64,000 bases of DNA from Eledone cirrhosa (Eukaryota): the NCBI GenBank assembly GCA_964016885.1, contig OZ024745.1, positions 85,622,001 to 85,686,000 on the forward strand. Direction: 5' to 3'. Below, piece by piece: positions 394 through 63,875 of this stretch. Every line of letters begins with the position of its first letter. Within the stretch, counting starts at the first letter, position 1. Below the pieces are notes generated by a model. The model was given only the letters and a program-made list of their open reading frames with translations. It ran no database searches and was not told the origin of the DNA. A program made the position numbers and the translations under genes.

Positions 394-436
394 ACGGTGC
401 TGACGATAGCTAATAAGCTTGAAACTAGTACAGCGT
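394..436 (+). ncRNA. Minimal type I hammerhead ribozyme, array copy 1
   Basis: acggtg-CTGACGA-tagct aata agctt-GAAA-CTAG-TA-cagcgt. Confidence 0.8.
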
Positions 437-822
437 TCCTTTGTCAGTGTTGAACAAAAGGGCAACGTTGGTTGCTAAACACTGTACGGCTTAATTCGGG
501 ATGTTTGTTTACAAACAAACCGAGCATTATAATAAATGCTCGGTAAATCCATACGTACATGTATATATGTGTGCATGTATGTATATGTATACATACTACT
601 GTACGTATGTATACATATATGTATGTGCGTATACATACTTAAATTTAAGTAACAGCCGTACTAAGAGTGAGAAATGAAATTTCGTTTCATTTTTTTCCAT
701 TTATCGTTTTCGGTGCGCCCGGCCGATTAACTCACTCGATATGTAAATTAGGCTGCTCAGCCGTTAATATGCATAAGTAAAGTATATACTTTGAGACGTT
801 CAATCATCTGGCAGGAAGGAAT

Positions 823-865
823 ACGGTGCTGACGATAGCTAATAACCTTGAAACTAGTACATCGT
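823..865 (+). ncRNA. Minimal type I HHR, array copy 2
   Basis: acggtg-CTGACGA-stem II (one mismatch)-GAAA-CTAG-TA-catcgt. Confidence 0.8.
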
Positions 866-1249
866 TCCTTTGTCAGTGTTGAACAAAAGGGCAACGATGG
901 TTCCTAACACTGTCTGACTTAATTCGGCATGTTTTTTACAAACAAAGCGAGCATTATAATAAATGCTCGGTAAATCCATGCGTACATGTATATATGTGTG
1001 CATGTATGTATATGTATACATAGTACTGTACGTATGTATACATATATCTATGTGCGTATACATACTTATATTTAAGTAACAGCCGTACTAAGAGTGAGAA
1101 ATGAAATTTCGTTTCATTTTTTCCCATTTACTGTTTTCGGTGCGCCCGTCCGATTAACTCACTCGATACGCAAATTAGGCTGCTCAGCCGTTAATATGCA
1201 TAAGTAAAGTATATACTTTCAGACGTTCAATCATCTGGCAGGAAGGTAT

Positions 1250-1292
1250 ACGGTACTGACGATAGCTAATAAGCTTGAAACTAGTACATCGT
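1250..1292 (+). ncRNA. Minimal type I HHR, array copy 3
   Basis: acggta-CTGACGA-tagctaataagctt-GAAA-CTAG-TA-catcgt. Confidence 0.8.
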
Positions 1293-61070: not shown

Positions 61071-61104
61071 ATATATATATAAATTATATATATTAATATA
61101 TATA

Positions 61105-61243
61105 TGTCAACCTCGGTGGGATTTGAGCTGAGTTCAAATCCCACCGATGTTGACTTTGCCATTCATCCTTACGGCGTCGACAAAATAAAGTACCATTGAT
61201 GCAATGGGTAATTGCTGACCTTGTGCCTAAAGTAGAAACAATT
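61105..61243 (+). mobile_element. 5'-truncated SINE with a small 5' inversion
   Basis: 61105-61127 is inverted to 61132-61155. Confidence 0.75.
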
Positions 61244-61817
61244 ATATATAAATATATATATATATATATATATATATATATATATATATATATATATATA
61301 TATATATATATATATATATATATATATTATTTATATATTATATATATATTATATATATATATCATCTATAAATATATATTATATATATATTATATATATA
61401 TATTATATATATATATTATATATATATATATTATATATATATATATATTATATATATATATATTATATATATATTATATATATATATATATATATTATAT
61501 ATATATATTATATATATATATATTATATATATATATTATGTATATACTATATATATATATATAATATATATATATATATATATATAATATATATAATATA
61601 TATATATATATAATATATATATATATATATATATATATTATATATATATATATATATTATATATATATATTATATATATTATATATATATTATATATATA
61701 TAAATATATATTATATATATATCTATATATATCATATATAAATATATATTATATATATATTATATATATTATATATATATATAATATATATATTATATAT
61801 ATATATATATATATATA

Positions 61818-63875
61818 TTCATTAGTTAAGCAAAACAACACCACAAACTTCACAAGGAAGACATTATTAAAAGATTGTCAACACATTTTAGTTTGATGTA
61901 AGGAATGTAGAGAATAATAATAATAATAATAAAAATAATAATATTATAATAATATTATATAATGTCTCTGAATCTGGTTATAAACAATCAATTTATTACA
62001 TACCTAAATGCCATAGCACAGCAACTCACCATAATAAACTTAACACTAGAACTAGAAATACCTTAGCATGTAGCCAGATTCGCCAGAATTTTAGCAGTAA
62101 CAGCACCTATACAGGGAACTTTAATGGTGGCAGCGGCCTGCTCCCCACTCCAAGTAGCAAACTAAAAATCAACTCTAGAATAGGAATGAGAAATGGGATG
62201 ACAAATAACAAATCCCAGGTAATAATAACCCTAGGAAGGCCCCTACCAACTCCACTAGAACCCCTAGAAGGAATAGACCTAGAAATATCACCTGGCTCAA
62301 CCCACCATTCTCATCTAATCTAGCCACTAATATCCCCAAACGCTTCTTCTCTATCCTATCCAAACACTTCCCCCAACAATAGATATTACAAACTCTTTAA
62401 TAAAAATAACATTAAAATCTCATTCTCCACAACACCTAACCTAGATAGCCACATCGCGTTCAGTAACCATCATAAGCAAAGACAGTATAACTCCCACACC
62501 GCGGTACCACCACCCCTATCAAATACACCACGCCACTACACCAATAATTACTCTAGTAGCACACCTCCCCCATCTAATCCTTCTAGTACGGACCAACCGC
62601 TTAGGTTAAACAACCCTACTCTCACTAACCACAGAAGCAACTGCAACAGCCGTTACCCTAATGCATGCCCATTAAATGGCCACTGCCTGACACCCAACAT
62701 AGTCTATAGGTGCACGGTTGAGACTGCTTCGAATACCAACTCTTATATCGGGTCTACCTCTAACCCTTTTAAGGTACGCTATAACGCGCACTCTTTTTCC
62801 TTCCGAGACCCTAGCAACAGATGTTCCACATCGCTAGCTAGGCTCATTAAAAACCTTAAATTAAACAACGTTCAACATTCACTAAAATGGGATATCGTAG
62901 CTAGGGCCCAACCGTTCAATGGACGAAGAAAATCGTGTGATCTCTGTGTTACGGAAGCATATTACATGACTCTATCACGACCTCTACCGATTAACGATAG
63001 AACGGAGGTAACCATTAGATGTCAACATCGAAGGGCTAATTCCTTCGCCAATAGAGTTTTTGACCCAACTTAGTCATCTAGCCCCATTTCTACTTGCAGC
63101 TAATAAGTTAAATTGCTATGAACAACTCGATAATTATAAGTTACCTCCCCTACATTGTCTCTCAATTAAAAAATTCAAAAACTAGCACTCAACTATAAAT
63201 ACTCACAATCTCTAATCTCTCGAGATGCTACTTCCCCTGGAACCACCCTCTAATTAGTAAGGTAAATATGCCCTTTGGCATCCATCTTGTTATCCATAGG
63301 CAGATCTCACACAATGCAGCCTCGACAGATGAATACTGCTTGATTATGGCTGACAGCTGATGCAACCAAGACACCATAGTAAAAACCAATATATGGAACA
63401 TTATATTATGGAACATTATTTTAATTTATATTCCTTTGAGTTCCGATGAGCCACTCTGTTTTTTTAAATATGTTAATTATTTTCAACTGAACCAGATCAA
63501 TTATGATATATAGTCATCTGATCCAGAAATATTATATGGAGTAGCGAAACAATTGTAAACGGACATTATTATTATTAATATTAATATTATTATTATTCTC
63601 TACATTCCTTACATCAAACTAAAATATGTTGACAATCTTTTAATAATGTCTTCCTTGTGAAGTTTGTGGTCTTGTTTTGCTTAACTAATGAATATTTTCA
63701 GCTCTGCGCACCTAACTTCTGCATGAACCCAGCCACCTAGCTGCTTTCTACTGCATATTGCACATTGAGCACATGCCTTTACGCTTTACCTTCTAACTAA
63801 CTCACCACTCTCTCCTCTCATATCTCCTCTACTATCTCCATCTCTCTCTTTAAGATTGGTTACTCTTGAAATGTG
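61818..63875 (+). mobile_element. Naiad-like PLE (linker+EN ~62170-63073) with inverted arm
   Basis: ITWLNPPF..HFP..CPLNGHC..YIGSTSNPFKVRYNAH..CDLCVTE..CQHR; arms 61818-61930 and 63577-63694. Confidence 0.85.
63440..63560 (+). ncRNA. HHR, U4C variant, long stem II insertion
   Basis: gtt-CCGATGA-gccactctgt...atggagtagc-GAAA-CAATTG-TA-aac. Confidence 0.65.

Follow-up and report, generated by a model that had tools for sequence, protein, structure and literature searches.

Eighteen families of type I hammerhead motifs, mostly at the 3' ends of Penelope-like elements, in a (TA)n-rich stretch of the Eledone cirrhosa genome

The 64-kb stretch of Eledone cirrhosa DNA analysed here (the window) contains 47 hammerhead-shaped motifs from 18 families, set among degenerate (TA)n blocks and the remains of Penelope-like elements (PLEs) (Table 1). 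The inventory began with 69 clusters; removal of 23 TA-only and 2 probably false clusters left 44, and the motifs at 8721, 18578 and 16665 were added by hand. The candidates at 46534 and its copy at 57443 were rejected as probably false, since they have a non-palindromic loop III and lie antisense to that family's own motif. Some of the (TA)n blocks are inside the 3' UTRs of elements.

Table 1 Elements, hammerhead motifs and (TA)n blocks in the window
Feature	Position	Strand	Description
(TA)n	6..63999	.	60 degenerate blocks, 14,084 bp in total; putative insertion target
Family 394	125..2352	+	ORF-less 428-bp tandem, 4.7 units, inverted piece 125-332, (TA)n flanks; five motifs, first 394-436, last 2106-2148
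Family 394, further copies	22564..23647	-	Motifs 22714-22756, 23246-23288
Family 5564	2557..5838	-	Broken Hydra-type PLE, ORF pieces 3277-4899; motif 2601-2702 (U3:A8); inverted copy motif 5564-5665 (+)
Family 6931	6023..7121	.	Inverted pair of 3' UTR ends, motifs 6063-6127 (-), 6931-6995 (+)
Family 6931, further copies	10784, 16177, 26123, 36014, 37408		16177 partial, 26123 damaged
Family 6931 lineage, coding context	43227..45402	+	Hydra-type endonuclease ends 43808; 1.4-kb 3' UTR, motif 45211-45276
Neptune/Nematis-like PLE fragment	7516..9008	+	ORF pieces 7524-8467; imperfect motif 8721-8762
Fragment related to 8721	53353..54531	-	ORF pieces 53770-54356; motif 53485-53527
Family 9995	9228..10239	.	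Inverted pair, U4C core, motifs 9258-9304 (-), 9996-10042 (+)
Family 9995, damaged relative	13229-13289
Family 15722	13610..15903	.	Inverted 3' UTR pieces, U3:A8 core, long helix III; motifs 13618-13711 (-), 15722-15815 (+)
Family 18576	16471..18736	+	PLE, C-terminal GIY-YIG 17145-17588 (CX4CxxC linker, CCHH), 1-kb 3' UTR; motif 18578-18614 (U3:A8, 3-bp helix I, GCAA for GAAA); inverted copy near 16665 (-)
Family 24157	18871..24247	+	Hydra-type ORF pieces 19471-20783; microsatellite-laden 3' region; motifs 18965-19035 (-), 24153-24223 (+); small inverted pair 39878-40090
Family 25843	24648..25909	+	Hydra-type ORF pieces to 25659; motif 25843-25882 (private G12 change)
Family 26622	26480..26983	.	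Motif 26619-26745 (-), 92-nt domain II; partial inverted copy 26838-26956 (+)
Family 29791	27455..29890	+	Hydra-type ORF pieces 27473-28258; long 3' UTR; U4C motif 29791-29868
Family 31399	31242..34589	-	Canonical PLE: DKG, RVT_1, GIY-YIG with CCHH; ORF pieces 31811-33593; minimal motif 31399-31433; damaged inverted copy 34432-34483 (+)
Family 38530	37718..38682	.	ORF-less unit (~595-bp tandem elsewhere), U3:A8 core; motifs 37939-38042 (-, damaged), 38530-38619 (+)
Family 46215	46160..47080	-	Hydra-type PLE 3' UTR, motif 46210-46345
Family 46215, second copy	57068-58010		Motif 57118-57253
Family 47265	47251..47374	-	Motif 47265-47315; damaged copy 53197-53259 (+)
Family 48898	47748..50021	+	Partial tandem of Hydra-type PLE; endonuclease end to 48488; motif 48898-49014 (private A15.1 change); next ORF start 49150-49938 (RWR, DKT); tail 49919-50021 repeats 49061-49165
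Family 56436	55472..56530	.	Inverted pair, motifs 55594-55664 (-), 56436-56504 (+)
Family 56436 lineage, coding context	58635..61083	-	Hydra-type ORF pieces 59726-61083; 1-kb 3' UTR, damaged motif 58659-58736
Family 63440	61825..63870	+	Hydra-type ORF pieces 61964-63073; U4C motif 63440-63560; inverted piece 61825-61943

A strict type I descriptor matched 25 sites in the window, against means of 0.125 and 0.175 and a maximum of 1 in two sets of 40 local dinucleotide shuffles, bearing out the original prediction of an excess over shuffled DNA. The relaxed descriptor matched 31 sites (mean 0.22, maximum 2 in 60 shuffles). Judged by the core (CUGANGA, GAAA and UH, or a 3:8-paired variant) with helices I–III in type I order, passing copies exist in 17 of the 18 families, and a search with other second-box variants gave 6 matches, compared with 1–3 in shuffles, and no new family. 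Rfam returned no hammerhead match in the window at the gathering score; an E-value scan, dominated by TA-driven miRNA matches, held no hammerhead among the matches listed (150 of 208). Chance matches do occur in AT-rich, self-complementary DNA, since seven false matches of the relaxed descriptor fell in a single minisatellite, and its window match at 46534 is probably false too. As an account of the motifs, however, chance has a negligible probability in view of the shuffle results, the fixed position of the motifs within repeat families and covariation outside the search criteria. The hammerhead observation is confirmed.

Nineteen coordinates had been proposed as foldable. Fourteen pass in the window copy (394, 5564, 6931, 9995, 15722, 24157, 26622, 31399, 38530, 46215, 47265, 53485, 56436 and 63440), and for most of these the proposed number is the exact end of helix I. 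Three others belong to intact families but are privately damaged in the window: 25843 reads CAAA there and GAAA in 24 of 24 other copies, 48898 has GAAT where 18 of 19 other copies pass, and 29791 carries one loop-III change absent from most of the copies among the matches listed. The last two are atypical, with a helix I mismatch in 8721 that is common to its relatives, and GCAA for GAAA in 18576 in all 25 motif copies from 20 loci. The count of about 18 families is supported. The stems assigned to them are not all different, as helix I is common to 6931 and 56436, and loop III to 24157 and 29791.

When positions 3 and 8 and loop III were left free, 144 matches had C3:G8, 15 had U3:A8 and 32 had other combinations, compared with 3.25 paired and 18.75 other matches in shuffles searched in the same way. 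In at least two separate endonuclease lineages both positions have changed together, with U3:A8 in place of C3:G8. Of the 159 paired matches, 105 have a perfectly palindromic loop III, and the palindrome is kept across different sequences. Core columns vary by 1.9%, compared with 5.5% for unpaired non-core columns. Double changes preserve pairing in 177 cases and disrupt it in 58 (96 and 38 without the overlapping B2 set), counts in which rows are not independent and double transitions preserve pairing on their own. The suggested test of stem covariation was positive overall; seven young families contain no compensatory change. Domain II reaches 115 nt, and both U3:A8 and U4C cores are present.

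These patterns bear on the possibility that most motifs are no longer catalytic, the fold being carried along or serving as a priming landmark with cleavage dispensable. Family 18576 is still spreading (copies 91–100% identical), although the conserved A13 is lost in all 25 of its copies and in 81–91% relatives; a 72–80% sister family has GAAA. In a family with many intact 781-aa ORFs, helix I is unpaired in both loci inspected, and ribozyme mutants of a Poseidon element still insert in vitro, according to the accessible sections of that report (PMC11167929). We nonetheless consider a general loss of catalysis rather unlikely, given the constrained core columns, the pairing-preserving double changes, the exchange of positions 3 and 8 as a pair and the palindromic loop III.

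The motifs lie near TA-facing ends, as had been proposed: the nearest TA tract is the downstream one in 29 of the 31 window matches, and within 300 nt in 28. Among 48 inter-TA islands of at least 150 bp, 34 contain one or more motifs and 14 contain none, so that the notion of one motif per island is true only on average.

By their sequence context, 15 of the 18 families are the 3' UTR ends of coding PLEs, not parasites. This supports the suspected link to GIY-YIG PLEs and does not support the large share of ribozyme-bearing parasites envisaged alongside it. Twelve families carry protein motifs of the Hydra clade, a named group with published canonical ribozymes and (TA)n targets that the original prediction had overlooked. 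The ribozyme lies on the sense strand, 0.2–3 kb past the stop codon and 12–320 nt before a fixed element end adjoining (TA)n; with UTRs of this length, 5'-truncated copies look ORF-less. One endonuclease type corresponds to one ribozyme type in 11 families, and likewise for 24157 in three loci; the coding evidence for 26622 comes from one locus. Classification of 6931, 9995, 15722, 24157, 29791, 46215 and 56436 as non-coding was rejected as an artefact of cutting at the first upstream TA run. In other copies the endonuclease lies further up, at ~1.4 kb (6931), ~1.0 kb (56436), 1.2–1.5 kb (29791), ~1.15 kb (15722), ~0.73 kb (46215), 1.4–2.4 kb (9995) and 2.0–3.4 kb (24157). No coding partner was found for 47265 in the copies examined.

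A natural 784-aa ORF of family 48898 contains RWK, DKT, YRDD, CxCX5C, CxxC and CxH and has no CCHH; it is part of a 3017-bp tandem and is flanked on either side by a ribozyme in sense orientation. Hydra-clade elements are usually shorter than 3 kb, and the 1–3 kb UTRs mean that some elements here must exceed that length. Single ORFs of 778–784 aa with YRDD and a C-terminal YVG domain occur in all six stretches examined, and stop-free frames of at least 780 aa in 24 of 146 scored matches; the window ORF at 49150 has RWR and DKT. For a 760-aa Hydra-type protein, Pfam gave no significant match and a profile search of the PDB no match, while a homolog search found 131 mostly unnamed proteins, 120 of them listed at 30–40% identity. 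The DNA examined holds at least 13 endonuclease clusters; the Hydra assignment comes from protein motifs, and the endonuclease tree is an internal one of 13 rows. The Hydra-1_oBim core motif is absent from the loci examined. With respect to Neptune/Nematis features, 18576 has a C-terminal GIY-YIG domain with CCHH and a CX4CxxC linker, whereas only CxxC was seen in 53485. The ORF of 18576 stops right after the endonuclease, 1.1 kb upstream of the 3' end. A ribozyme-free Naiad identity for this family was rejected because the endonuclease proved C-terminal and the motif is homologous to that of an intact family.

Families 394 and 38530 are the only ones that behave as non-coding tandem units, and they are retrozyme-like, with a predicted circular form. 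Their low-GC units of 421–470 and 578–595 bp, respectively, each contain one type I motif, and their longest Met-ORFs have 69 and 76 codons. Neither matches a PLE protein, no coding parent was found in the DNA examined, and no endonuclease lies upstream in 40 of 40 copies of 38530. Predicted circular folds of the monomers have z scores of −6.2 to −8.5, whereas the values for four UTR pieces from coding families are −2.5 to +0.3. As far as the available text of two reports describes non-LTR retrozymes (PMC7229834; preprint 10.64898/2026.07.22.740005), these share the ORF-less tandem, the single type I motif per unit, the low GC and the circular self-paired fold, whereas 394 and 38530 are embedded in (TA)n and accompanied by inverted pieces in the manner of PLEs. 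One of nine tested dimers cleaved, according to the portions available of the latter (Li et al. 2026). Family 38530 also has long and short ends of the kind described below, which points directly to PLE machinery. If such units were the rule, most families would be independent non-autonomous ribozyme parasites that occupy the TA niche alongside a small number of autonomous PLEs. Most window and sampled copies do have no ORF within 700 nt upstream, but when long UTRs and TA runs within the elements are taken into account, 15 families prove to have an endonuclease gene of their own upstream, at a distance typical of the family, which makes this reading improbable.

Each family has two fixed 3' end positions, followed by TA-like microhomology in several families. 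Inverted pairs comprise 43 with one long and one short end, two long–long and no short–short (p = 3e-11 against 0.5), with the bins set after the modes were seen and 12 more pairs unclassable. In a bin-free check on stretches taken without selection, the two ends differ by at least 40 nt in 22 of the 30 pairs that could be measured; 7 of the 30 have equal distances, which we attribute to TA runs inside those elements, as confirmed for family 394 only. One end of each kind in 43 of 45 pairs fits two internal priming sites, as in the Anolis Poseidon element (Frangieh et al. 2024, PMC11167929). In the sections of that study available to us, both strands are cut and extended at an AT-rich target, and two internal start sites 3' of the ribozyme define an optional tail. 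The likeness extends to all these features; however, Poseidon start sites are alike on top and bottom strands, whereas the two ends of an insertion here nearly always use different sites, which also lie further apart.

Based on these data, the motifs are very probably the 3' type I folds of many PLE families, mostly with Hydra motifs, that likely piled up through repeated, target-primed insertion into (TA)n. We propose a plausible mechanism in which the GIY-YIG domain would nick both strands of a TA tract and reverse transcription would start at two internal RNA sites 3' of the ribozyme, one per strand, so that the two copies of a pair would lie head to head, one with a short end and the other with a long one. 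As synthesis would start just past the ribozyme and mostly end early, insertions would nearly always keep the ribozyme and lose the ORF. Dimeric cleavage by two motifs of one tandem transcript would be made possible by the palindromic loop III, and the ORF-less 394 and 38530 would be retrozymes that depend on this machinery and form structured circles. Across the 79 sampled stretches, those richer in TA tend to have more ribozymes (rho 0.58); among 20 neighbouring stretches the correlation is not significant (rho 0.30, p 0.2). Alternatively, most of the local density might be due to duplication, slippage and unequal exchange within the palindromic TA tracts, instead of separate insertions: the window copies of 46215 are each other's best match (98%, at most 95% elsewhere), and seven SINE-like pieces share one orientation, one being 100% identical to a copy at 11952. 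This seems unlikely to be the main source, given 18 families, those searched each yielding between 137 and more than 4000 first-look candidates on many contigs, the fixed ends with their long-and-short rule, and a density that is also elevated across 200 kb of adjoining DNA (58 strict matches).

From 79 sampled 10-kb stretches we estimate ~103 motifs/Mb, or ~310,000 genome-wide (200,000–430,000), with at least 34 clusters represented; the window density is about four times the sampled mean. Earlier work with a tighter descriptor reported, in the sections available, ~2,000–9,000 minimal type I hammerheads per metazoan genome (Cervera and De la Pena 2014, PMC4209133). Of the 83 strict matches in our sample, only 35 combine a CUGANGA core with a domain II of at most 25 nt, so the figures are not directly comparable. 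In their many families per genome, mostly dispersed single copies, opposite-strand pairs, palindromic loop III, U3:A8 covariation and an extra base after position 9, the PLE hammerheads of that report resemble those here. Accessible parts of other reports give ~38,500 blastn matches for S. mansoni Sm-alpha (PMC2770079) and up to 120,000 copies for axolotl retrozymes (PMC7229834), numbers to which just one or two families contribute. What sets the Eledone motifs apart is their high number and diversity, not a record density. The S. mansoni genome is about 0.4 Gb; at that size its density would be similar to the ~100/Mb found here. A claim of record density was rejected on this comparison (PMC2770079). 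Our literature search found no cephalopod ribozyme census; Lunse et al. (doi 10.1080/15476286.2016.1251002) may give counts or core variants, and the word ribozyme is absent from the main text of PMC13282606.

The available text on the Hydra clade (Craig et al. 2021, PMC8557442) describes a single ORF with RWK, DKT, CxCX5C, CxxC and CxH, a C-terminal GIY-YIG domain without CCHH, a canonical sense ribozyme ~100 nt from the 3' end, a (TA)n target and one cephalopod family, Hydra-1_Obim. The families here share its protein and (TA)n features and differ in number (at least 12 in one window), in tails of ~60–190 nt compared with 30–40 bp, in 3' UTRs of up to 1–3 kb, and in U3:A8 and U4C cores, which are absent from the ribozymes that this text lists. 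They enlarge, on an unusual scale, a kind already published, namely Hydra elements with ribozymes and (TA)n targets. More tentatively, and slightly on the doubtful side, they may represent the largest and most diverse animal hammerhead load (~300,000 motifs, 35–60 families) yet described, produced by a radiation of Hydra-clade elements that are still active, with a general rule of priming the two nicked strands at different RNA sites and with one young lineage spreading although its catalytic core is not intact. Rfam missed the motifs and Pfam the Hydra-type proteins here, so routine annotation would miss both. The role of PLE ribozymes and the making of inverted tailed insertions are open questions in the accessible parts of earlier studies (PMC8557442; PMC11167929). 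For both, this genome offers intact ORF candidates, a simple (TA)n target and a one-short-one-long prediction, together with natural core variants side by side, including an A13-lacking lineage beside its intact sister.

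The excess of hammerhead motifs in the window is real and far above chance. In this sequence (GC content, 28%; 60 degenerate (TA)n blocks, together 14,084 bp), a strict type I descriptor (core C3:G8 or U3:A8, U4 or C4, domain II of at most 130 nt) detected 25 sites versus a mean of 0.13–0.18 in 80 local dinucleotide shuffles, and a relaxed descriptor detected 31 versus 0.22. After removal of 23 clusters made up of TA alone and 2 that are probably false, and with 3 sites added by hand, the full inventory holds 47 sites in 18 families, consistent with the original prediction of abundant motifs from about 18 families; an Rfam search recognised none of the window motifs. 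Of 19 coordinates proposed earlier, 14 passed unaltered. Three (25843, 29791 and 48898; families are named by window coordinate) carry private damage in otherwise intact families, and two are atypical: 8721 has a weak helix I, as do its relatives, and 18576 is hammerhead-shaped but has GCAA in place of GAAA. The proposed placement near the TA-facing end was borne out, the nearest TA tract lying downstream in 29 of 31 matches, while the proposed one motif per inter-TA island held in part (34 of the 48 islands of at least 150 bp contain a motif).

With positions 3, 8 and loop III left unconstrained, a search of the window and 98 other stretches of the genome (excluding the minisatellite stretch L029) returned C3:G8 144 times, U3:A8 15 times and every other combination 32 times, compared with 3.25 paired and 18.75 other in shuffles; loop III was perfectly palindromic in 105/159. 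In copies collected by homology, variation was 1.9% in core columns versus 5.5% in unpaired columns outside the core. Pairing was preserved in 177 double changes and lost in 58 (96 and 38 when the overlapping B2 set is excluded). This stem covariation across genomic copies, which the original prediction had called for, supports the hammerhead fold moderately, because 7 young families showed no compensatory changes, the rows are related, and double transitions preserve pairing on their own.

In family 48898 (repeat unit, 3017 bp), one natural copy of full length encodes a 784-aa ORF with RWK, DKT, YRDD, CxCX5C, CxxC and CxH; CCHH is absent. These features match those given for the Hydra clade of Penelope-like elements (PLEs) in section 11 of PMC8557442, which include RWK, DKT and CxCX5C; the supplement of that paper assigns the clade canonical ribozymes as well as (TA)n targets and includes a single cephalopod family. 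Once long UTRs are allowed, a family-specific endonuclease lies upstream of the motif at a typical distance in every coding family, so that the expected position downstream of GIY-YIG ORFs was found in 15 families, at 190–3400 nt. Twelve of the coding families are Hydra-type, 31399 is a canonical element with DKG and CCHH, and 8721/53485 and 18576 look Neptune/Nematis-like. Some families are probably still active, since stop-free frames of at least 780 aa occur in 24 of the 146 matches that were scored. Hydra-type proteins (P0054 and other homolog matches) are also widespread in metagenome assemblies, on contigs of 2–3 kb; one match, labelled a Gammaproteobacteria MAG protein, is probably host contamination.

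Families, their endonuclease-to-motif distances, and other features (window coordinates unless an L-label names another stretch of the genome)
Feature	Coordinates	Distance (nt)	Remark
25843		190	
53485		260	
63440		370	
31399		380	
48898		417	Sense motif 417 nt past stop
5564		570	
46215		730	
26622		950	One locus
56436		about 1000	
18576		about 1000	
15722		1150	
29791		1200–1470	
6931		1400–1470	
9995		1450–2400	
24157		2000–3400	
Hydra-type ORF region	50396–52610, minus strand		Downstream ribozyme motif not found within window
Hydra-type family	L292:4784–5535 and L293		Many intact 781-aa ORFs, both core boxes, palindromic loop III; helix I unpaired in 2/2 loci inspected
SINE-like pieces (n = 7)	27133–27315, 35167–35289, 39342–39526, 40717–40837, 42070–42250, 45864–46044, 61107–61239		One shared orientation; between TA tracts
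SINE-like copy	11950–12134		Opposite strand to the other seven
CxxC fragment	L293:5352–6470		Three CxxC motifs, beside TA tract; the following sequence resembles the terminal part of an RTE-type LINE protein
157-bp island	58101–58257		Family 15722 tail one way, half ribozyme motif the other; minimal long+short pair, outside the 43-pair count
Tail repeat	49919–50021		Repeat of 105-bp tail (49061–49165), immediately behind truncated ORF and ahead of TA tract

Only families 394 and 38530, with tandem units of 421–470 bp and 578–595 bp, had neither a PLE protein match nor a consistent upstream endonuclease, and only their monomers were strongly paired in predicted circular folds (z −6.2 to −8.5 versus −2.5 to +0.3); 47265 was placed neither among the coding nor among the retrozyme-like families. 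The proposed community of autonomous PLEs and ribozyme-bearing parasites in one TA niche thus retains two retrozyme-like members, but most ORF-less islands, given the endonuclease upstream in each coding family, read as 5′-truncated PLE UTR ends. Other repeats also lie beside TA tracts. Among the seven pieces of a SINE-like element with a tRNA B-box-like motif, one shows 100% identity to the copy at 11952 on the opposite strand. A 17-bp duplication flanks that copy, and the pieces suggest local copying within TA tracts.

The core is U3:A8 in 5564, 15722, 38530 and 18576 and U4C in 9995, 29791, 31399 and 63440, both natural variants already described (PMC3088659, PMC4209133). In a 13-row endonuclease tree, most of whose remaining branches are weak, 5564 falls within a 100/99 group of C3:G8 families and 15722 outside it; U3:A8 therefore likely arose more than once. 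A13 is missing from 25/25 copies of 18576 and from relatives of 81–91% identity, and a sister family (72–80%) retains GAAA. The natural variants described in section 8 of PMC3088659 do not include an A13 substitution. The 18576 motif is probably an impaired ribozyme, carried by a young lineage that is spreading.

Families have two fixed 3′ end positions, short and long, downstream of the predicted cleavage site and about 60–190 nt apart. Outward-facing inverted pairs of opposite-strand copies from 13 families comprised 43 short+long, 2 long+long and 0 short+short (p = 3e-11), with 12 more not classable and bins fixed only after the modes were seen. In a bin-free check of unselected stretches, end distances differed by at least 40 nt in 22/30 pairs and were equal in 7/30, where internal TA runs probably mask the difference. 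The tail repeat at 49919–50021 looks as if synthesis had jumped template at the short-end site. PLE insertions with a tail at just one end are described in section 6 of PMC8557442 and in PMC3846280. According to PMC11167929, the protein of Poseidon, another PLE, cuts and extends both strands in vitro. Two internal start sites of synthesis determine its tail, and insertion can proceed without ribozyme cleavage. By analogy, we infer that both-strand cutting and extension from two internal start sites hold here; as an addition to the Poseidon scheme, a single insertion event would use both sites. Synthesis would begin just downstream of the ribozyme motif, which would be copied first, leaving one motif per insertion. 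The palindromic loop III would allow dimer-dependent cleavage, following PMC4209133.

The chromosomes of the 3.0-Gb genome were sampled at systematic positions with 79 stretches of ten kb each. Their 83 strict matches (shuffles, 1.7) correspond to 103 per Mb, extrapolating to about 310,000 motifs genome-wide (bootstrap 200,000–430,000), or 360,000 with the relaxed descriptor after removal of 7 minisatellite matches. The window has about 4× the mean density and the adjoining 200 kb about 3×. Counts obtained by differing methods are 120,000 in axolotl (PMC7229834), about 38,500 in S. mansoni (PMC2770079) and 2,000–9,000 minimal motifs in other genomes (PMC4209133); a narrow descriptor would admit only 35 of our 83 matches. 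No cephalopod ribozyme census was found in the literature searched, on which Lunse et al. and supplements may bear. Clustered at 80% identity, the sampled motifs form 34 groups, a few of them false singletons, with a Chao2 estimate of about 61. Recurring families missing from the window occur in stretches L198/L203/L214/L233/L269, L036/L038/L208, L216/L243, L222/L233 and L026/L207; loop III of window-absent families includes CCGG, GTAC, CTAG, CTAATTAG and TGATCA, among others.

PLEs with ribozyme motifs and putative TA targeting have radiated throughout this genome, and the window is one of their hotspots, with two retrozyme-like passengers. Known biology accounts for its motifs; what is new here is the scale, the length of the UTRs, the long+short rule and the loss of A13 in one lineage.
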